From positions 1-58,417 of the IMG/VR virus record IMGVR_UViG_3300009109_000006: 58,417 bases of DNA. The stretch is one strand, 5' to 3'. The notes below the pieces were generated by a model that had not been told where the DNA came from, ran no database searches, and saw only the letters and a list, made by a program, of their open reading frames with translations. A program made the translations under genes and the position numbers. This DNA is from a virus (lineage: Duplodnaviria > Caudoviricetes). Every line of letters begins with the position of its first letter. Within the stretch, counting starts at the first letter, position 1. Shown piece after piece: positions 1 through 18,374 of the stretch.

Positions 1-119
1 CACTCACACGGTGGCCGATTCAGCGGCAAGGCCAACCAACTCCTTTTCGATATGGCGCACCATGCCCCGCACATCCCCAACCACAACGCCTGTCTCACAG
101 CCGTTCCAGGGCGGCGACT
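1..119. repeat. Terminal direct repeat, left copy (circular assembly overlap)
   Basis: 1-119 is identical to 58299-58417 and overlaps the 3' end of the VWA gene; most simply an assembler k-mer overlap of a circular or circularly permuted genome. Confidence 0.95.
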
Positions 120-1959
120 GACGAGCGAGGTCGTCGTGACGCGCAGCGTTCCACTTACGATCATCTGTCGATGCAAGATAGATGAGGTGAGTGCTGACTC
201 CCAGGCTGCGAATGTCTCGCACAGCCCTCGTCGCACTGTCCCGCCTGAACCAGTCGCCGTCCGTGATGGCGAACATCACCTTGTGCCTTTTGTCGGAAAC
301 CGCAAACACACGGTAAGCCGCTTCCAGTGCGGCGTGTGGCAGTGTGCCGCCAACTACGGGGAAGACAGCCACCTGCTCGCCCGCCGGAGACTCTGCCCTA
401 TACAGCACAGACATCTCGTTGCTGTAGCCAACCACGGTGCAGGGGATGTCCAGCCGGTCACACGATTTCTTGATCGTCCACATAGCCTCGGACGAGGCAA
501 CCATATCTTCACCCATTGACTGCGACTGGTCAAGCAAGACAACAACTTCAATCGAAGTGGCGTCGTCCCCTGCATCTTTCCACTCGTCAAAGACATCAAG
601 GTCCACACCTCTGCTTTGCATCATGGCTTCGATGTTGACTCGCCCACTTGACACTCGCTTCACCCAGGCAGGCTCGGCGTCATATCGCAACTGCGCCATT
701 GCAGTCGTCAAACGGTCGGCAGCAGTTTTGCTCGCCGCCGCAGGAGCCTTTGAGTAGGTAGAAGCGTACTTCTTGCTGCCCGCATTGGTAAGAGCAATTT
801 TCTCCAACTCTCGGGCAGCCTGGATGGTGTCCAGAATGTCGGTGCGAGTGGCGTCAAGCGCCTCGTCCACTGCTTTAGCAGCCTGCTCTTCCAAGGTGTC
901 AGGGGTGGCCGAACCATCTCCTGCGGTGGCAGTAGTCGCCTCGGCTTTCTCTGCCTCAGCATCTTCTTCCTTGTCGCCCATGGGGCACGGCGCACTCTGG
1001 CTGCCACCATCGGCCTCATCATCAGCATCAGCCTGTTCTTGGATACGGCGCTGCTCTTTCACTGACTCAGCACTAGATGCACGCTGATGCTCGTGGCCGT
1101 GCGTGACGTTCGGAACCATGTCCTCAGACCTTTTGTGGGTGTGCGTTTCGGCCTGACGCTCAAACCAGACGGCCAACTCCCGAACCAGTTCTACTGCACG
1201 GTCGCCGTCTGACGGGAACGACAATGAACGGTACTCGTCAATGATCTTCTCCAGCATGGTGGTGTCGGCCTCACCAAATCTGGCTACAGACTTAGCCCTG
1301 GCGCGCTGCCGCATGTCTGCCGGAAGGTAGCGCCGCCCATGAAGAAGCAGGTGCCGCAAGGCCCAGTGATCCTTGGCGTATTCAGGATCGGAAGAAACCG
1401 GCGCTCCCGCGTGGTCCAGAACCCACTGAGCAACAGTCAAGGTGAAGTAGTCGCTTGACACCGGCCAACGAGCCACGAACAGGCGCTCAATCCGCTGGTC
1501 TTCCAGAAGGTTGAAGCACCGCCATGCACTTGGATGATCCTTCGTCAGCCTCCGAATATCGGGGAGGGGCTTGTGAGTGTGGCGCGGCGTATACAGAACG
1601 TGAGCCAACTCGTGGTAGTTCAGCCCTTTGCACGCTGACATCGAACGTACAAGTGCGCTGGCGTTATTCGGAGATAGCACCGTTTGCAGGTGGCTCTTGG
1701 ACAGAAAGATGGTTTCGCCATCTGTCCAGCCGGGTGGGGTAGCACCATCAAACGACCAAGTGATTGGATTGCTGAGTTTCACTGGGACAGTGCGCCCGGC
1801 AACGATGGAGTTGACTTTCGTGAACACAGCAGCGAACGACTCTATGCGAGCCGCCAACTTTGCGTTGGCTAGGCGCTGCTTTGGCGTGAGCGTGGAGTCC
1901 ACGCCCAGCACATCACTGTCGTGGGAGTCCCGATAGCGACGCCTCTTATACCGCTTCAC
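4..1959 (-). CDS. VWA-domain protein with N-terminal HExxH metallopeptidase-like region (MoxR partner)
   Basis: HELAH and FNLLEDQRIE motifs; acidic linker; MIDAS motif LLDQSQSM and ITDGDW; adjacent to the AAA ATPase. Confidence 0.85.
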   Translation of the reverse strand: MKRYKRRRYRDSHDSDVLGVDSTLTPKQRLANAKLAARIESFAAVFTKVNSIVAGRTVPVKLSNPITWSFDGATPPGWTDGETIFLSKSHLQTVLSPNNASALVRSMSACKGLNYHELAHVLYTPRHTHKPLPDIRRLTKDHPSAWRCFNLLEDQRIERLFVARWPVSSDYFTLTVAQWVLDHAGAPVSSDPEYAKDHWALRHLLLHGRRYLPADMRQRARAKSVARFGEADTTMLEKIIDEYRSLSFPSDGDRAVELVRELAVWFERQAETHTHKRSEDMVPNVTHGHEHQRASSAESVKEQRRIQEQADADDEADGGSQSAPCPMGDKEEDAEAEKAEATTATAGDGSATPDTLEEQAAKAVDEALDATRTDILDTIQAARELEKIALTNAGSKKYASTYSKAPAAASKTAADRLTTAMAQLRYDAEPAWVKRVSSGRVNIEAMMQSRGVDLDVFDEWKDAGDDATSIEVVVLLDQSQSMGEDMVASSEAMWTIKKSCDRLDIPCTVVGYSNEMSVLYRAESPAGEQVAVFPVVGGTLPHAALEAAYRVFAVSDKRHKVMFAITDGDWFRRDSATRAVRDIRSLGVSTHLIYLASTDDRKWNAARHDDLARQSPPWNGCETGVVVGDVRGMVRHIEKELVGLAAESATV

Positions 1960-2843
1960 TCGCTCACCTCCTCGGTGTTCTCGTTGTTCTGAGTGTCGTC
2001 CTCGCCGAACAGTTCGCTCTTGATGAGCGTGGCTTCCAGCGTGAGAACCTCACGCACCACCACCTGCTCGTCGGGCGAGAAAGAGTTGACGAAGTTGCCC
2101 ATGGCAAAGTCGAAGCCCAGGTTGTCGCTGGTAGCGAACTCCTCAAACTCCAACAGCATGTTGGTGCTGACCGGAGTAGTGAGGTCACCCACGGCGTGGC
2201 GCTCACGCAGCGAGCCTGCCAATGTCAGCAAAGTGTTGCTGGCCACCAGTTCGGCCTCTACGTCTGTCGAATACGGGAACGACAACTTGATGGCAAACCT
2301 GTTCCTGAACGCTTGGTTGAGCGGGCGAGTGCCATGGTAGCCACGATTCATGGTGGCGATGATCTGGCAGTTCGGGTGGGCACGAAGTTCTGTGGGGAAC
2401 GACGACCCTGACGCCTCAGGAATGCTGATGGCACGACGGCGATCCAACAGCGAGTGCAGGTAGACGGAAATCTTGGGAGGCATCATGTTCACCTCGTCCA
2501 AGTAGATGATTCCTCCATGCTCCACGGCCTTCAGGAGATCGCCCGGCACGAAGTCGAACGTGCCGTCGGGCTGGGGGGTCCAGCCGCCAATGAAGTTGCG
2601 TGGCTCCGCTGCCCCGTTGCACGGGATGTTGACCACAGGCAGGCCGACCTCGGCAGCAAAGGCCATGACCAGTGAGGTCTTGGCGCTACCGGTCGGCCCT
2701 TCGATCAGCACGTTGTGCCGCAGGGAGTGTGCCGTGGCGAGGGCGTCCAAATCACGGACACCATCGACTTCACGAGAAACGTAGTCCTCGTAGAAGAAGC
2801 GTTGCGGCACAAGGTGTGCCAGGGGATGGTCGGTGTTAGGCAT
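1956..2843 (-). CDS. MoxR/CbbQ/NorQ-type AAA+ ATPase
   Basis: Walker A GPTGSAKT, Walker B IYLDEVN, ATMN, AFRNRF; 4-bp overlap with the VWA gene. Confidence 0.9.
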   Translation of the reverse strand: MPNTDHPLAHLVPQRFFYEDYVSREVDGVRDLDALATAHSLRHNVLIEGPTGSAKTSLVMAFAAEVGLPVVNIPCNGAAEPRNFIGGWTPQPDGTFDFVPGDLLKAVEHGGIIYLDEVNMMPPKISVYLHSLLDRRRAISIPEASGSSFPTELRAHPNCQIIATMNRGYHGTRPLNQAFRNRFAIKLSFPYSTDVEAELVASNTLLTLAGSLRERHAVGDLTTPVSTNMLLEFEEFATSDNLGFDFAMGNFVNSFSPDEQVVVREVLTLEATLIKSELFGEDDTQNNENTEEVSE

Positions 2844-4004: not shown

Positions 4005-4451
4005 TCATGCTCGGGCCTCCATGTAGATCCGGCGGGACTCGTCCATCCGGGCGGCGCACTCAGCGACGGTCCACTCCACGCGGTGGTGGTATGGGCTGCC
4101 GTCGGCAGGCATCAACTCCAGACCGTTGCCGATCTCGTTGAGGATGAAACCCTCCGGGCACGGGACGGTGATGTTGCCGTCGTCGGTGGCCTTCTCGCCA
4201 GCGAACACGACCGGGCCGACCAACTTGTGGGCGTATCCGGTCCACTGGCGAGCGATCATGGAACCGACGAGGTTCAGGGTGAAGTCCTGACGCATCAGCC
4301 CCTCCTCGTTGACCCACGCCACGACGCCTCCGGGGAGATCGACTGCTTCGATGTAGCCGTCCACCAGAGTGGACAGGTCCGCGTAGGTGTCGTCGGTGGG
4401 GACGACGCGGAAGGCGTCGCCGTTGTCGTTGATTACGAGGTAGTTCTTCAT
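4005..4451 (-). CDS. DUF3846-like phage protein
   Basis: LVDGYIEAV, VNEEG, N..GS and LVGPVVF pattern; AAGGAG RBS. Confidence 0.75.
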   Translation of the reverse strand: MKNYLVINDNGDAFRVVPTDDTYADLSTLVDGYIEAVDLPGGVVAWVNEEGLMRQDFTLNLVGSMIARQWTGYAHKLVGPVVFAGEKATDDGNITVPCPEGFILNEIGNGLELMPADGSPYHHRVEWTVAECAARMDESRRIYMEARA

Positions 4452-4479
4452 GGTGTCTCCTTGTTGGTGGTTGGTAGTC

Positions 4480-4524
4480 GTCCCCGCCCTGGGCTTGCAC
4501 CAGGGTGCCGACTAGTCGGGGGGC
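4480..4524 (-). other. tRNA-minihelix-like structured element, copy B
   Basis: CCCCG-ACUAGUCGGCA-CCCUGG-UGCAAGC-CCAGGG-CGGGG-AC. Confidence 0.6.
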
Positions 4525-4525
4525 G

Positions 4526-4867
4526 CTAGCAGCGTGCTGGGGTGACCTTCCTAGCCACCTTGGTGACTCGCTCTCCCCAGAACGTGTGCGCTGCAACGCA
4601 ACGGGACGCCGACGGCGTGCCCTCTACGTTGTACGGTCCATGGCAATGGACTTGGACACGGCCATCCGGTGTGGTGTCAGCCGAACGGAACTTGAACCAG
4701 CCCCTCTTGCCGCTCACCCGGAATAGCCGACCGGCAACCAGCGGGAGGCAACCGTCCAGGCGAAGTTCCTCGTGGAACTTCCACCCTGCCGCCTCCTTGG
4801 CTGCACGCTGTTCGGCATGGCACTGGCGCAGCGCCTTGGCCGCAGTAGCCGTAGCCTTTGGTGCCAT
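4526..4867 (-). CDS. Hypothetical basic protein
   Basis: AAAGGAG RBS before ATG at 4867; the longer ORF-track extension runs over the RNA gene. Confidence 0.65.
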   Translation of the reverse strand: MAPKATATAAKALRQCHAEQRAAKEAAGWKFHEELRLDGCLPLVAGRLFRVSGKRGWFKFRSADTTPDGRVQVHCHGPYNVEGTPSASRCVAAHTFWGERVTKVARKVTPARC

Positions 4868-4987
4868 ATCATCACTCCTTTCAGGTCCGAACATTGAAGG
4901 CTGTTCGATGAGCCTGTAGGTCAGTGAGAGAGCAGTGCCAGGAGGACACACACAAGAACGGGACCACTTGGTCACTGCTCTCTCTTG

Positions 4988-5066
4988 TGGAGGTGCGGGG
5001 AATCGAACCCCGGTCCATTGAGGTCCGTGTACGGCTTTACTCAATGTCGATGCCAATGCCACCCCC
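4988..5066 (-). ncRNA. Minimal tmRNA-like RNA (tRNA-like domain only, no mRNA-like domain)
   Basis: GGGGGUG/CACCUCC-A acceptor stem with G3:U70; stemless D-loop ending UCGAC; helix AUUGAG/CUCAAU; GGAC; T-arm CGGGG-UUCGAUU-CCCCG; CCA not encoded (CAA follows). Confidence 0.8.
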
Positions 5067-5770
5067 GTGTGACCAGCCATTGCTGGCTGGTCGGGGTTTT
5101 TACGCTTGAGATGCCTGCTAGTACAGCGGGGTGCCGCTTGGGTTTTGCCAAGCCTTGGCACTGCTGGCGAGCCAGACAAACAGCACGATGCCAACGTGCT
5201 TTCCCTCACCAGGGATGTCTGCTTTGCAGGAGTTCAGTCCACTGACGGGGTACGGGTAGCGATCCTTGCTCGGCGCTAGGGAGTGTGTACTCCCTGCCGC
5301 TCACCTAAACATCCTGCTGGCTGAGTGGCTTGGGGGACAGCGTGCCTCGGTGACGGTTGGACAACCGCCGCTCAAACGAGCGGGGACGCAGAATGCTGGC
5401 TCCAAGTTCTCTAGCGGCAGGCTCAGTGAGCGTTGCGCCTCTACAGCGAACTGGGGGTATGCAGAGTCGGGACCAGACTCCATGGATGGGCAGGCGTTTC
5501 AATAGCCTCCCGGCCCCATGGCCCCTGGACGAACTCAGATTTGGAAAGAAGCGCAGATGCCACCCCTGGTCCTTGGCTGCTGGCCGCAAGCCCGGTCCTG
5601 CTTTCGGACGCTGGGTTGGTTCCCGCTATGGTCGGCACCTTGATGGTCCGGTCCCACCCTCCCCCGTAGGGGAGGCTGCCCTAGTCGCTTCGCCTGGCTT
5701 GATGTCCTGGCCGCATCTCCCGGTGTTCCCGGTGAGGCATCTGTTGGTTTTCAAGCGCCCGTTGGGCGCT
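5067..5770 (-). ncRNA. Candidate large structured non-coding RNA (or RNA cluster)
   Basis: No convincing ORF; at least nine hairpins including a cUACGg tetraloop (5658-5675); long-range stem 5554-5561/5736-5743; directly downstream of a near-consensus promoter. Confidence 0.55.
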
Positions 5771-5775
5771 CACCC

Positions 5776-5804
5776 ATTCTAGCACACTCTGTCATGGGTA
5801 TCAA
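5776..5804 (-). promoter_or_regulatory. Sigma70/SigA-type promoter
   Basis: TTGATA (5804-5799), 17-nt spacer, TAGAAT (5781-5776) with extended -10 TG. Confidence 0.75.
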
Positions 5805-5905
5805 ATCATTGGCGTAGGGGGCAGTGGCCAGAGACACCATGGAGTCCACCTGCACTGCCCGCCCCACGGGTATAGTCGCCCAACCCAACTCAACAGGAGG
5901 ACTAG

Positions 5906-6202
5906 ATGCTCGGCTGTACCGTTGCCCGCTACCGACCGACTCGCCATGCCCGCTCGGCTGTTCGCTCATTTGAGCGAAGGGTTCAGGCTTGCTATCAGAA
6001 GAAAGGGCAGCACGTTGTACCAGCACTTTGCCGCCCTATTGCCTGCAAAAAGAACGATGGCTGCCAGAGGCATTTCTGGGAAATGAGACACCAACAAACT
6101 GCTGCTTCCAAACGGGTTGGATTGCCGGATACTTTCTGGGCGGCTGCTGCAAAAAGCGCCAGGGCGCTTAGCATTACTATTACTACTACTGAAAAGAAGT
6201 AG
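5906..6202 (+). CDS. Hypothetical basic protein
   Basis: AGGAGG RBS 5 nt before ATG; stop overlaps the helicase start. Confidence 0.55.
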   Translation: MLGCTVARYRPTRHARSAVRSFERRVQACYQKKGQHVVPALCRPIACKKNDGCQRHFWEMRHQQTAASKRVGLPDTFWAAAAKSARALSITITTTEKK

Positions 6203-7473
6203 TGGTGTCTGGAAAAGATGAAGTTCTGTTTCTTTCAGCAGTCCTCAGACAAGGAGATGTAGTAACCCCTCTAGGCTCTGGCGTTACAAAGCATTGGTTC
6301 CACTCCTACCAAGATGAGTGGGAGTGGGTTGACTCTTATGTAAAGAGGCACCGTAAGTGCCCCTCCAAAACTCTCTTTAGAGACAGGTTCCCTGGGTTCA
6401 CTATTCTCAAATCAGATGACGTTGAATACACCATCAACCAACTGAGGGCCTCTCATATCAGGTTCTCTTTGATCGACACTGTTGACGACGTTCTGGAAAG
6501 ACTAAAAGATAGTGAAGACCCTTCTGGGGTTCTTGATTCTGCCTACCAAAGCCTGGCTTCGATTCAACTAGATGCTCATGGCGGGCAAAACGAAAGTGAG
6601 ATCATCTCCGACTGGGAAGGGACATTTTCAGAAGTTGCTCGCCGTTACGAACGGATGCAGGCCCGTGGTATGGCTGGGGTGCCTACGGGTTTTGCCACAC
6701 TGGACCTGCTAACCGGTGGCCCTCAGCCCGGCGACTACTGGATTGTGGCTGCCCGCCTCGGGCAAGGCAAGACATGGACGCTGATTCGTATGGCCTGTGC
6801 AGCCCTGTACGGCGAAGCCGTTGTTCAATACGATGCCTTAGAGCAGTCACGGGCACAGATTGCCATGAGGTGCCACACGTTCCTGTCTAGCCAGTACGGA
6901 ACTGAAGTGTTCAAGTCCATGGACCTGATGCACGGCAAGAACTTTGACCTTGTGGCATACAAGCGATTCTTGAAAGAGTTGAGCGGGAAACTGGATGGTC
7001 GTCTTGTGGTTGATGACACTTCCAGGGGGCGAGTCAGCCCGTCATCCATCGCTGCTCAGATTGAGCGCAATCGGCCGGACATCGTGTTCATCGACTACCT
7101 CACGCTTATGAACGCAGGCGGGGACGACTGGCGGGCCATGGCCGAACTCTCAGGTGAGATCAAGGGCATTGCCATGCGGTACGAGGTGCCCATCGTTGCA
7201 GCGGCTCAAATCAACCGCATGGCGATAGGCAATGATGTTCCTGGGGCTGAGCACTTGGCGGCTTCGGATGCGATTGGGCAGGACGCTGATGCCGTGGTCA
7301 CGATGCGGCAGATGAGCCAGCGTGTCATCAAAATGAAACTTGCCAAGTTTCGGCACGGAATGGACGGGCAGGCTTGGTTCAACGAGTTCTCCCCGAACAC
7401 CGGGCGGTTTGAGGAGATCAACGGCGATGACGCCAAAGACCTCATGGACGAAGACCGTGCCAACGCCGACTGA
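6202..7473 (+). CDS. dnaB: DnaB-like replicative helicase
   Basis: GVPTGF, ARLGQGKT (Walker A), VFIDYLTLM, AAQINR, IGQDAD, KFRHG. Confidence 0.92.
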   Translation: MVSGKDEVLFLSAVLRQGDVVTPLGSGVTKHWFHSYQDEWEWVDSYVKRHRKCPSKTLFRDRFPGFTILKSDDVEYTINQLRASHIRFSLIDTVDDVLERLKDSEDPSGVLDSAYQSLASIQLDAHGGQNESEIISDWEGTFSEVARRYERMQARGMAGVPTGFATLDLLTGGPQPGDYWIVAARLGQGKTWTLIRMACAALYGEAVVQYDALEQSRAQIAMRCHTFLSSQYGTEVFKSMDLMHGKNFDLVAYKRFLKELSGKLDGRLVVDDTSRGRVSPSSIAAQIERNRPDIVFIDYLTLMNAGGDDWRAMAELSGEIKGIAMRYEVPIVAAAQINRMAIGNDVPGAEHLAASDAIGQDADAVVTMRQMSQRVIKMKLAKFRHGMDGQAWFNEFSPNTGRFEEINGDDAKDLMDEDRANAD

Positions 7474-12485: not shown

Positions 12486-15400
12486 CAGGTGCTCGCACTA
12501 GATGTATACATGCTGGACTCCGTGGTGACGGGTACAGGCCCGTTGGCCCGCTCATACTCACGAAGTGCTTCAACAACGGCCTCGGACACTGCCGCCGGGT
12601 CGCTCACCCCAGCGGAGATGTTGATGTTGTAGGTGCTGCCGCCACCGCCCATGGCTCCCAGTTTGCTTAGCGGGACAATGGCTTCTGGTCCGGCTTCCCC
12701 GGCAAGTACCAGTTGGGGCTTTTTGACCACCCCTCCGTTGGCCATGGCGGGCACGCTTTCCAGCCCGGCGAGGTAGTTCATTACGTTGCCCAGGCCGTGT
12801 TCTTCAATGCTCTTGTAGAACCGGTCAAGTTCTACGGCCTGCCGGTACTCGTCAAACTCTGGGAAAGCCTGCCGGGCCTCCTCCATCATCTCTCTGATGT
12901 GCTCGGTGATGAGAGCGAACTGGTCGGCCAGTGTGCCGCCCATGTCGTCAATGGCTTCAAGCGCCTTGACTACCTCCGGGGCACTACGAGCCAGTTCCAT
13001 GTAGGCGGCTTCCTGTGCCCGGACGGCTTCAACCTGTTCCAGCGCCAAGTCACGCAACCGCTCGTCAATGGCGGCGATCTGCTGCTTGACCGCTTCCTCA
13101 GCACTCAGTGCTGCTGCGGCATCCTCACTTGCCAGCGCCAGTTCTTCTTCAGCGATGGCAAGGTCCAGGGCGATTGTTTCTGCCTCAGCCTGCATCTCAG
13201 CGAGGCGTTCCTGAGCGTCAATCAGTTCCTGCGACGGAGCAATGGCGTCGGCAATGCTTTGGGTGAGGGCGTCTTGTGCTGCCGTGTACTCGGCTTCGGT
13301 GATGATCCCTGCGGCGTACCTGCGCTCTGCTGCGCTGAGGGCGTTAGCCAGCCGCTCAATCTCAGTGGCTTCGGCGGCGGTCACATCCGCAGCGGCCTCA
13401 GCCTCTGTGATGAACCCTTGGGCGATCAGCCCTCGCTCAACCGCTGTTACCTCATGGGCTTTGGCCACCAAATCGTCAATGGCGGCCTGCTGGTCCTCCA
13501 ACGCCTCTGGGGTCAGTTCCTGTTGGCGGGCAACCAGCCGCTCGTAGGTGGCTTCAAGGTCCAGCAGTGCCCTGGCCTGCCGAAGAACCGACAGTTCGTA
13601 CTCCCGCTGGAATCGGTTGCCGTCTTCTTGGAGTTTGTTGCGCTGGTCAAGAAGGGCGTTGATCTCCTCGTCAATGCGCTCAACTCTTTCTGTCGCACTG
13701 ATGTAGCCGCTAATGGCGCTAGTGCCCGTCTTCACTGCTGCGGCAGACCGCTCAATGGCCCCCAGGATTTGCTCCCAAAGGTCAACTGTTTCTTCCAGGC
13801 CACGGCCGCCACGCCCGCTCCATGGTGCCTCAGTGATCTCGGGCATCGACAGCAGCGACAGCAACTTCTCCAAGTGGGCGATAAAAGGTATGTCGGCTGG
13901 TACGCCCACTGCCGTAAGAGCCTCAATGACGGCGCTGATGGACTGGGTGTTCATCCCGCCGAATCTCATAACAACATCAACGACAACCGGGGGAGCACCG
14001 TCAATGGTCATCATCATGTCGTACATGCGGAGGAGTTCGTCAGTGTTGTACCCTGCCGCCTGACCAGCCTGCACCAGCCAGTCGCGTGCCTTCTGGAGTT
14101 CGCCACGCAAGATTTCAGTAGCGTCTGACGCTATGTCCGCAGCCTGGTTCATTTTGTGGATCGCCTCGGCGTTGGCAAATGCAGCACCCTGAACGCCAGC
14201 GATCATGCTTTCAAGTTGCTCGGCCTCATCTCCCGTGGCCCGCTGAGCGTTAGCCGCCTGGAACATGACCTGCGCCATGGCGTCAACTGAATCCCCCAGG
14301 TTGTCGGTTGTCCCAATAAGGTCAGTCGTCAGGCCAGAAGTGATCTTGATGCGGTCGTTGAGGTTCTGAAAGTCCTTCTCGGCAGTCACCACACGGCGCT
14401 CGGCTTCAGCAAGCGAAATCCCAAGTTCCTCTACTGCACCGCTCAGGGCTAGAGCGCGCACCTCCAGTTCTTCGGTTTGCAGTGCTGCCTCATGCACAAC
14501 CTTGTTGTAGGCAAGCACTTCTTCGTTGACAGTAGCGGTGATCTCACCAAACTGTTCCGCAAACTGAATCGCTTCTGCTGCTGAGCGAGAGTTGAGCCAC
14601 GCCTCCCAGTCAATACTTCTGGCAGAAGCAATGTCTGCGGCCAGCCCCGCCTCCACAGCAAACTGCTGCAACAACTCCAGGGTTCTGTCTGCGCTTGACT
14701 GCCACTCACTCACCATGTCGCCAGAGGGCGGCTCTAGCGAGTCCACGAGCAGGCGCTGGATTTGTTCCCACGAAGTCCGCTGGAATGTGCGCTTCTGCGC
14801 GTCGCCAATGAGTCGAAGGGCTACTACAAAGTTTTCTGCCTGACTGGTAGCAAGGTCATACCCCGTATTGAGTGATTTGAGATAGTCAAGCAGTGGTGGG
14901 TAGACGTACTCGCCGGTTTCCCCGGACTCTTGGACGATCCGCACAAACTCCTGCAACTCGACACTAGTCAGGCCCAACGTGTCCACAAGTTGCTGAACGT
15001 CGCTGTCGATGTTTTGGAACGGCCTGTTCCCCAGCCAGTTGCGCCATGCTTCTTGGTTGTCGGGCAGCAGCCCGTTCTGGTCGTAGAGAGCACTGTTGAT
15101 GCTGTCGATGGTGGCTTCTAGTTTCTTCCCTTCGTCATTTGCTCCCTTGAAAATCTCCATTAGGACAAATGCACCTGCTGTGAGAACGAGCAGGGGGAGG
15201 ATGGTTTTCAGGGCAGCAGACAGCCCCAGTGTGGCCGCAGTGGCTGCTACTGTGGCCTGCGTTTCAGCCGCCAGAGCAGTAACTGCACTCCAAGTGGCTG
15301 CCGCATACTTGATCTTGGCTACCGCTGCCGCACCAATGCCCGCAGCGAAGCCCAGTACGGCTTTGGCTCCCAGAGCCAGCACAAAGGCTGTGATGACCGG

Positions 15401-17561: not shown

Positions 17562-18374
17562 TTATGCTTGTTTGGCCGAAATACGCCCGACCGAAATGAT
17601 CGGCGTGATAGTACCGCTGCTGTATCCACTAGCAGCGGAGAACTGGAATCGCAGGTACTGGTTGAGTGTGCCTGATGTCGCCCCAGCAATGCCGGACGAA
17701 AGCGCCCCGGCTGACAGCGAGGCTTCAATGGTGGTGAGGTCTGACCATGAGGAACCGTTGGTGCTGTGCTGCACCTTGATCGCTTGGGCAGCATCCGAAG
17801 TGTTGGCTGTGATGTGCCAAGCAATCAGATAGCCGCTAGTGCTGGCCGCACCGCTGTTGACCGTTGTCCCGTCCACGGTAGAGCCAGCACTGGGAGTAAC
17901 AGCCGAACCGGTTGTGAGGCTTTCGGCAGCCCAGGCGTTGGCGTACACCACTCCTGCGGTGCCACCGTCATGCCCGCATTCCCAGTCGGTGCTCACTCCA
18001 ACAACATCGGCCACCGGGCTAGAAACGTCGTAACTGGTAAGTCGAGCATACGCTCCCTTCACCCAAGAACCGGCCGCCATGGTGTACGGGACAACAGTTA
18101 CAACTGACGGGTTGGCAGTGGAGTTCAGGCCATCCAAAAACTGGTCAAACGTCTTGGTGGTCCCGGTGGGGTCGATGTCGGTAGACGCCTCATACAACCC
18201 GCCCATACTCAGGGTTCCAGAGGTCAGCCCTTTGATGAAGGTTTTGCTGCTGTTAGTGAACGTCGTAGTTTCCCCTGGCTCTCCGGCTGAAGCGATGGTC
18301 GCTTCGTTCAGGTACGAACTCAGGTTGTATGAGTCCACAAAGACCTGGGTGTCTTTTCCGTGATAGAACGCCAT
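17562..18374 (-). CDS. Tail-tube-like paralogue with C-terminal beta-rich extension
   Basis: N-terminal half aligns by eye with 17148-17549. Confidence 0.7.
   Translation of the reverse strand: MAFYHGKDTQVFVDSYNLSSYLNEATIASAGEPGETTTFTNSSKTFIKGLTSGTLSMGGLYEASTDIDPTGTTKTFDQFLDGLNSTANPSVVTVVPYTMAAGSWVKGAYARLTSYDVSSPVADVVGVSTDWECGHDGGTAGVVYANAWAAESLTTGSAVTPSAGSTVDGTTVNSGAASTSGYLIAWHITANTSDAAQAIKVQHSTNGSSWSDLTTIEASLSAGALSSGIAGATSGTLNQYLRFQFSAASGYSSGTITPIISVGRISAKQA

Follow-up and report, generated by a model that had tools for sequence, protein, structure and literature searches.

The window analysed here, 58,417 bp, makes up an entire IMG/VR virus record whose completeness class is 100% with terminal repeats, and the minus strand of the window carries at positions 4988..5066 a gene of 79 nt (counted through the discriminator A) for a tmRNA reduced to its tRNA-like domain (TLD), hereafter called a mini-tmRNA. 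The locus is almost certainly a genuine member of a family of TLD-only tmRNAs. The kind as such is already described for phage DS6A (2009/2014), a point that had escaped the original prediction, and as a single locus the finding is confirmatory, not surprising; what is noteworthy is the breadth of the family, the apparent selection on its alanine identity, its conserved inner module and the fact that it is missed by annotation pipelines.

Read on the minus strand, the RNA begins with the 5' strand of the acceptor stem, GGGGGUG (5060..5066, with G3 at 5064), which forms 7/7 pairs with positions 4989-4995, and continues into a stem-less D-region of 14 nt with UCGAC at its end (5046..5059), as read from the sequence and seen in the Rfam alignment. 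It is followed by helix 2 (5017..5045), whose 6 bp AUUGAG/CUCAAU are formed by the strands 5045-5040 and 5022-5017, and helix 2 is closed by an inner module of 17 nt (5039-5023) made of a 5' loop UAAAG, a 3-bp stem CCG/CGG with the loop UACA, and a 3' loop AC; both elements were read from the sequence and appear in the minimum-energy fold. A GGAC junction (5016-5013) leads into a perfect T-arm of 5 bp, CGGGG UUCGAUU CCCCG (5012-4996), both again seen in the sequence and in the Rfam alignment, and the gene ends with the 3' acceptor strand CACCUCC and the discriminator A at 4988 (together 4988..4995, sequence read). CCA is not encoded, the discriminator being followed by CAA. A K-turn reading of the inner loop, judged by eye, was rejected for want of the second sheared pair. 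The sequence of 4988-5066, when re-read, is exactly the one spelled out in the original prediction, and all of the tmRNA hallmarks that had been pointed out there (G3:U70, discriminator A, no D-stem, UCGAC, GGAC and a perfect T-arm) are present.

The Rfam tmRNA model RF00023 aligns from its first to its last position over 4985-5066(-), with high posterior probability at both ends and a score of 64.7 bits (gathering 47; E = 5.5e-23 for the whole window), 15 bases standing in for 308 internal positions (message and pseudoknots) out of the 374 of the model. Our own covariance model of the family, R1, gives the gene 72.6 bits (E ~6e-18), its only match in the window. Of the scans that had been suggested as checks, the Infernal one is therefore positive and the ARAGORN one is not: on the window, ARAGORN neither called the mini-tmRNA nor found a tag peptide, its only gene being a tRNA-Ser(GCU) at 56809-56900, distant from the mini-tmRNA. 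The mRNA-like domain of a standard tmRNA (resume codon, tag frame and stop codon) is absent, with 17 nt between the helix-2 strands, as are the pseudoknots PK1-PK4 and the long helix 2/5 (Rfam alignment and fold) and the canonical features of a tRNA-Ala, namely a D-arm and an anticodon arm with a 7-nt loop, the loop of the inner hairpin having 4 nt. This agrees with the earlier observation of a helix 2 shut after 17 nt and of missing pseudoknots, tag ORF and anticodon arm, for which Rfam, ARAGORN and the fold are of one voice. As for the partner of a two-piece or permuted tmRNA, no other tmRNA-clan match reaches the gathering level in the window, and none is seen in 4300-6300 even at E up to 1. 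The minimum-energy fold gives the acceptor stem, helix 2, the 3-bp inner hairpin and the T-arm, with an energy only mildly better than that of shuffled sequences (z = -2.1; 3/200 shuffles as stable), and the case for a mini-tmRNA rests on the family match and on covariation, not on folding energy. The description of the gene as a phage tmRNA cut down to its tRNA-like domain is borne out by the 7/7 pairing of the two TLD halves, the RF00023 match and the covarying family presented below.

In the literature searched, experimental documentation of a viral RNA mimicking the TLD exists for one phage only, DS6A, and no paper on a broad phage mini-tmRNA family was found. A passage in PMC4131195 (Hudson, Lau and Williams 2014) names 'Mycobacterium phage DS6A (TLD only)' and, with reference to Mao et al. 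2009, reports strong inhibition of tmRNA by a similar molecule, whether it can be charged or not, perhaps via titration of SmpB; the corresponding passage of PMC11915505, the 2025 tmRNA database paper, repeats that tmRNA is inhibited in E. coli by a DS6A-like form. The DS6A RNA was located at JN698994 28478-28557. It resembles the RNA of the window in being phage-encoded, about 80 nt long and built of TLD halves joined via a short helix 2, with G3:U70, a discriminator A and a common inner module AAA(R)CCG-loop-CGG, and one model (R1) matches both, at 59.1 bits for DS6A and 72.6 bits for the window. The two differ in the sequences of the acceptor stem and helix 2, in the CAC (not GGAC) that precedes the T-arm of DS6A and in its T-stem, GCGAG/CUCGC. 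DS6A is moreover a temperate mycobacteriophage with an integrase, whereas the phage of the window has no integrase and comes from marine metagenomes. As in DS6A, the RNA of the window is phage-encoded, here on a complete virus record, and a tmRNA of the host's own is presumed.

A blastn search with the 82-nt RNA returned short matches, which include unannotated look-alikes in Streptomyces phages. The Rfam tmRNA model gives 59.3 bits, above its cut-off, to the one in Shaeky (MT701595 42932-43013) and 36.8 bits to the mini-tmRNA of Alone3, and a second blastn query added LuckySocke, GiJojo, pSt2308 and BRock. These RNAs share the architecture and the inner module with that of the window, but they are embedded in large tRNA arrays, while the sole tRNA gene of the window lies far from its mini-tmRNA. 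A 'hypothetical protein' CDS is annotated across the mini-tmRNA of GiJojo (PP725410 17025-17102), which is probably a mis-annotation. In Alone3, the tRNA model matches, with a long insertion, an unannotated stretch of 126 nt directly upstream of the mini-tmRNA (37.5 bits; L002 2359-2484, or OR725492 ~18022-18147), possibly a tRNA with an intron or some other interruption; the tmRNA model also matches this phage weakly at a second place, 12889-12964 (29.9 bits).

Reduced tmRNAs are also found in organelles. A passage of PMC11915505 describes message-less tmRNAs of mitochondria and two plastid genes of ~65 bp (Mallomonadaceae). Such RNAs, in jakobid and other mitochondria, have likewise lost the mRNA-like domain and kept the TLD, with a presumed dependence on SmpB, but there it is the sole resident tmRNA that has been reduced, whereas the phage mini-tmRNA would be an extra, virus-borne copy, a contrast that assumes a full tmRNA of the infected cell's own. 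Standard one-piece tmRNAs (RF00023), which phages such as the mycobacteriophage Bxz1 group and Streptomyces phage Faust also carry, the latter as a full tmRNA with an annotated tag peptide, have the same TLD; the RNA of the window differs from them in lacking the resume codon, tag frame, stop codon and pseudoknot. With attP cores derived from ssrA, as in Mycobacterium phage MarkPhew, it has the T-arm and the 3' acceptor sequence in common, but those cores comprise the 3' part only and lie beside an integrase, while the window has the 5' half as well and no integrase.

The size of the family was estimated with two pattern scans of viral contigs. In the first, the inner motif and the T-loop were prescribed; it matched 56 viral contigs, 53 of which carry TLD-only RNAs of 77-80 nt; the other three (L030, L037 and L064) are tRNA-like sequences of 84-87 nt that were set aside by eye. 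The second fixed only UCGAC, GGAC and the T-loop, being blind to the inner part, and matched at least 119 viral contigs. Among the matches listed, 66 of the 80 distinct sequences (new loci plus the window) have 7/7 acceptor pairs and a length of 69-81 nt, 2/80 are 95-nt variants, and 12/80 resemble the 3' ends of longer tmRNAs. Together, the scans yield at least 105 distinct mini-tmRNAs of 69-81 nt. When the second pattern was applied to species-representative bacterial genomes, at least 121 matches were obtained, of which, among the matches listed, 119/121 are 3' ends of ordinary tmRNAs and 2/121 are mini-tmRNAs, both on short MAG contigs. The TLD-only form is thus predominantly viral and not cellular (66/80 in viral contigs versus 2/121 in bacterial genomes, among the matches listed). 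In the 140 mini-tmRNA loci, the length is 78-79 nt in 101, another tRNA lies within 300 nt in 28, and C follows the discriminator in 134, with a full CCA encoded in 24. Standard annotation misses the family, ARAGORN overlapping 3/140 loci and the cultured Streptomyces phages carrying their mini-tmRNAs unannotated. The two 95-nt variants (L095 11908-12002 and L103 11235-11329) have a longer helix 2 and inner part, and their loci encode an endolysin-like protein that is 52% identical to that of the window. In a further subgroup (L033, L036, L040, L057 and L058), UCGAC is replaced by UUAGCCC and GGAC by GGUAC, which looks like a coordinated change at the junction of the D-region and helix 2.

The search for homologues that the original prediction had called for, with a view to covariation, was rewarded with a large covarying family. 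R1 was built from a gapless seed of 18 sequences (A2) with a structure assigned by hand, and it recovers 99/99 chosen loci at 44-104 bits, other matches in those loci scoring at most 28 bits. Counts were taken from A4, a model-fitted alignment of 99 distinct sequences from which 7 near-duplicates had been left out; it supersedes an alignment (A3) that contained five weak tRNA-like matches of 25-28 bits, and no counts come from a MAFFT alignment of 106 sequences (A1), in which the 5' acceptor strand was misplaced. In A4, 96.4% of the cells are paired, compared with 68.3% after shuffling, and 0/500 shuffles reach that value, which for the acceptor stem is partly a matter of construction, only sequences of 69-82 nt with 7/7 acceptor pairs having been admitted; the pairing of helix 2 and of the T-stem and the presence of G3:U70 are not by construction of the filters. 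The covariation score is 0.669, against 0.132 for shuffled alignments and 0.05-0.09 when the partners are slid by 1-3 columns, and two-sided changes occur in 15/22 pairs, among them all 7 of helix 2 and both outer pairs of the T-stem. The structure is under purifying selection across the 99 distinct members.

Within the acceptor stem, G1:C72 and G2:C71 are kept in 99/99 sequences and G3:U70 in 98/99, while positions 4-7 vary freely, and the discriminator, which no filter had prescribed, is A in 99/99 rows (95/95 from viral contigs and the other 4 rows); judged from these sequences, it is the alanine identity elements that are under selection. The T-loop was fixed by the patterns in both sets and UCGAC and GGAC in the second, so that the conservation of the D-region columns GG and UCGAC is, for UCGAC, partly set by the second pattern. 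The inner module was free to vary in the 61 sequences that were found blind to it, and there A occupies three columns of the loop in 42, 47 and 47/61 and a purine the fourth in 47/61; at the two stem positions, C is present in 52 and 56/61. The inner hairpin has a 4-nt loop in 82/99 members, the ends of the loop being C..G in 69 and U..A in 7, which makes the UACA loop of the window a compensated variant.

The genome has an exact terminal repeat of 119 bp and a GC content of 58.4% (computed on the window), and it encodes a portal, a DnaE-like DNA polymerase, tail and head proteins, a DnaB helicase, a primase and an amidase endolysin with a peptidoglycan-binding domain. A single ORF of 2594 codons, 28634-36418 (-), separates the portal gene from the head-protein-like genes. 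At 4-2843 (-), an AAA_5 (MoxR/CobS-like) ATPase adjoins a protein of 651 aa whose match to a von Willebrand (VWA) domain is weak and sub-threshold, and this ATPase is kept in both of the nearest relatives (L169 and L170) with 55% identity. No match to SmpB (PF01668) and none to a tyrosine or serine recombinase (PF00589 Phage_integrase, PF00239 Resolvase) was obtained anywhere in the complete genome. The public runs listed as carrying the phage are 7 DNA runs from marine metagenomes, with no RNA run among them. Contigs from four runs of one study carry positions 4700-5400 without any difference, and three runs of one study have contigs of 5.1-5.4 kb that cross this interval with 0 differences, no gap and no joint; an assembly deletion is excluded as far as contigs can show.

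The mini-tmRNA lies on the strand that carries most genes, in a region of about 1.3 kb (4868-6200) which adjoins the divergently oriented DnaB and primase genes and in which no ORF has the coding GC pattern of the genome (low GC2, high GC3). This region may hold a regulatory RNA, an origin or very small genes, and Rfam at E up to 1 finds nothing in it besides the mini-tmRNA. A sigma-70-like promoter match on the same strand, TTGATA-17-TAGAAT with TG (5776..5804 (-), ~710 nt upstream), agrees with the consensus at 10/12 positions and is a consensus match only, one such site being found versus 0.4 expected in shuffles. A 10-nt copy of the 5' end of the RNA, 500 nt upstream, was judged to be due to chance. 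Hairpins stand on both sides of the gene. The one 4 nt upstream of the RNA 5' end (10 bp, 5070..5093) has no U-run on the minus strand, whereas on the plus strand it is followed, within 5070-5103, by GGGTTTTT, which is terminator-like; 5070-5103 has the look of an intrinsic terminator that would end an antisense transcript of the mini-tmRNA, and no promoter-like site on the plus strand was found near it. The other, which starts 3 nt past the discriminator (4926..4984 (-)), is a long hairpin with perfect 12-nt arms and 35 nt between them, possibly an element for 3' processing or RNA stability, or else a terminator that lacks a U-run. Neither of the two qualifies as a canonical terminator on the coding strand. 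Downstream, on the same strand as the mini-tmRNA, there is a gene of 113 codons with a strong Shine-Dalgarno sequence and a sub-threshold match to DUF7246 (4526-4867).

According to protein similarity, the closest cultured relatives of the phage are actinophages, the portal being 47-49% identical to those of Arthrobacter phages and the DnaE-like polymerase ~40% identical to those of Gordonia and Brevibacterium phages. When the 701 nt around the site were compared by blastn with 50,697 phage records, none matched. Neither of the two nearest relatives by DnaB (62-63% identity), of which one is a complete genome, has a mini-tmRNA, and the interval between the ATPase and DnaB is 1.3 kb in these relatives versus 3.4 kb in the window; the absence and the longer interval together indicate that the mini-tmRNA is an accessory insert in a variable region. 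Its absence from the nearest relatives further means that this phage lineage can do without it. A different mini-tmRNA is present, at another location, in a more distant relative (L141, portal 53% identical).

The 3' end of the RNA provides a lead to the host. The last 29 nt of the RNA of the window, with at most one mismatch, were searched in 401 sampled Actinomycetota genomes, with no other phylum as a control, and matches were obtained in 8/401, exact ones in 4/401. In the matched genomes, full-length tmRNAs of 341-360 nt end with these 29 nt and begin with the same 5' acceptor strand as the mini-tmRNA, and in three of them (L295 to L297) the first strand of helix 2 is nearly identical as well. 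None of the full-length actinobacterial tmRNAs with the shared 3' end has the inner hairpin, so that the inner module is not simply the leftover of a deletion. An actinobacterial host is a lead and not an assignment, only Actinomycetota having been sampled, although the protein similarities are concordant with it. In the marine runs X1, X3 and X4, short contigs match only the last 30 nt (4987-5016), which are identical, and continue into a different mini-tmRNA that is like that of locus L026. This fits a second, co-occurring phage with an identical TLD 3' end, in which case two phages would be mimicking the TLD of one host.

Trans-translation is the main pathway of ribosome rescue and protein tagging in bacteria. 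The original prediction had offered two functions, an SmpB decoy and an RNA that donates Ala without a tag; as predictions these are plausible and in accord with published work. We give a slightly better than even chance to the mini-tmRNA acting in infected cells as a dominant-negative inhibitor, made by the phage, of trans-translation and ssrA tagging in the host. The TLD is, according to the tmRNA papers cited here, in the parts that treat it, the portion recognised by AlaRS, SmpB and EF-Tu. Host enzymes would process the 5' and 3' ends of the transcript and add CCA, host AlaRS would charge it with alanine, and host SmpB would bind it, the phage encoding no SmpB of its own. The mini-tmRNA would then compete with the full-length tmRNA of the host for SmpB, for EF-Tu and for the empty A site of stalled ribosomes. 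It carries no message, so each SmpB or ribosome that it occupied would be lost to tagging. Processing, CCA addition, charging and competition are what we infer from the anatomy of the RNA, from its strict alanine identity and from the fact that the phage has no SmpB, and expression, SmpB binding and the effect on the host are likewise to be read as predictions from sequence. The points that speak for inhibition are the RF00023 match, the homology to DS6A, the selection on structure and on alanine identity, the missing SmpB, the viral character of the form and the published inhibition. Against it stand the fact that the sole promoter-like match is ~710 nt upstream, the lack of a canonical terminator on the coding strand, the missing gene in the two nearest relatives by DnaB, and that a lytic phage has no evident benefit from blocked trans-translation. 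The strictness of G3:U70, in addition, is not explained by simple titration, and favours the alternative of rescue without a tag that is discussed below.

A tentative reading, which we would not call probable, is that the mini-tmRNA is no passive sponge but an active, Ala-charged ligand of the ribosome in which the inner module, missing from the full-length host-type tmRNAs with the same ends, is a new functional element, an asymmetric purine loop (AAA-R opposite A-A/C) next to a closed tetraloop hairpin. Such an RNA would either uncouple rescue from tagging, so that products leave with Ala only or with an Ala tail, or disarm the readers of the tmRNA shape, for example RNase R, accessory nucleases of type III CRISPR or defence domains resembling SmpB. 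If true, this would make the family a widespread phage RNA counter-measure against translation-linked quality control or defence.

Rather unlikely, in our estimate, is the alternative that the Ala-charged RNA, with SmpB and EF-Tu, takes over the stalled peptide without adding a degradation tag. The ribosome would then be released by drop-off, by peptidyl-tRNA hydrolase or by an ArfB-type factor, and the products, phage proteins included, would gain one alanine, or several through repeated rounds. Selection for charging predicts what is seen in the acceptor stem (G3:U70 in 98/99 and a discriminator A in all rows, next to variable neighbouring pairs), whereas titration need not produce it. Peptide transfer to a TLD-only tmRNA has moreover been obtained in vitro, as stated in a passage of PMC3895274 that cites Shimizu and Ueda 2006, and the message-less mitochondrial tmRNAs, with imported SmpB, are thought to be helpful with incomplete mRNAs according to the passage on them in PMC11915505. 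However, a way for a peptidyl-Ala-TLD to leave the P site with neither message nor stop codon is not known, and the sole experiment on the phage form that is reported in the cited passages showed inhibition, not rescue.

We consider it quite improbable that the mini-tmRNA has no part in trans-translation and is an anti-defence decoy for other host factors that bind the shape of tmRNA or tRNA, such as RNase R (which is recruited by tmRNA-SmpB), the accessory nucleases of type III CRISPR systems or defence proteins with SmpB-like domains. The leads to such interactions come from the literature: in the relevant part of PMC11662646, the anti-CRISPR AcrIIIA1 works in complex with host tRNA and tmRNA fragments that bind RNase R, and in that of PMC11090510, CoCoNuT restriction systems have SmpB-like OB folds that are predicted to bind tmRNA. 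The location in a variable accessory region, with the gene missing in the nearest relatives, is also common for counter-defence genes. Nevertheless, nothing links systems of the AcrIIIA1 or CoCoNuT type directly to any mini-tmRNA, and the strict alanine identity would be left unexplained.

Even less should be expected of the idea that the element is a signal for the processing or stability of a polycistronic transcript, that is, a site cut by RNase P and a 3' nuclease or a protective end, akin to t-elements or mascRNA-type structures. We think this very unlikely. It would suit the same-strand unit that extends from the promoter-like site to the gene with the strong Shine-Dalgarno sequence, with hairpins on both sides of the RNA, and there is a weak, sub-threshold match to mascRNA (26.1 bits versus a cut-off of 42.5), but a cut site needs no G3:U70, no tmRNA D-region, no GGAC and no inner module, all of which are kept across 99 divergent sequences.

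Finally, it is hardly credible that the locus is an att remnant, a decayed ssrA pseudogene or an assembly artefact arising by internal deletion of a full-length tmRNA, because the record is complete and without an integrase and the independent contigs are identical; many phages do use the ssrA 3' end as attP (MarkPhew has a 44-nt match beside its integrase), and the methods section of PMC11915505 names internal assembly deletions as a known source of false tmRNA forms, but both TLD ends are present here and pair perfectly, at least 105 distinct sequences have the same architecture with compensatory changes, and the inner hairpin has no counterpart in the full-length actinobacterial tmRNAs. The decayed attachment-site fragment, against which the original prediction had argued from the pairing of the two ends, is ruled out by that 7/7 pairing together with the missing recombinase and the covarying family.

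The window adds a complete genome of a marine, apparently lytic phage to the DS6A kind. If the proposed function is true, the mini-tmRNA would be a natural and compact inhibitor or re-router of tmRNA-SmpB. As its ends equal those of host-type tmRNAs, it would also be a marker for matching phages with their hosts, and the family would offer a testable case of RNA mimicry in the conflict between phage and host.
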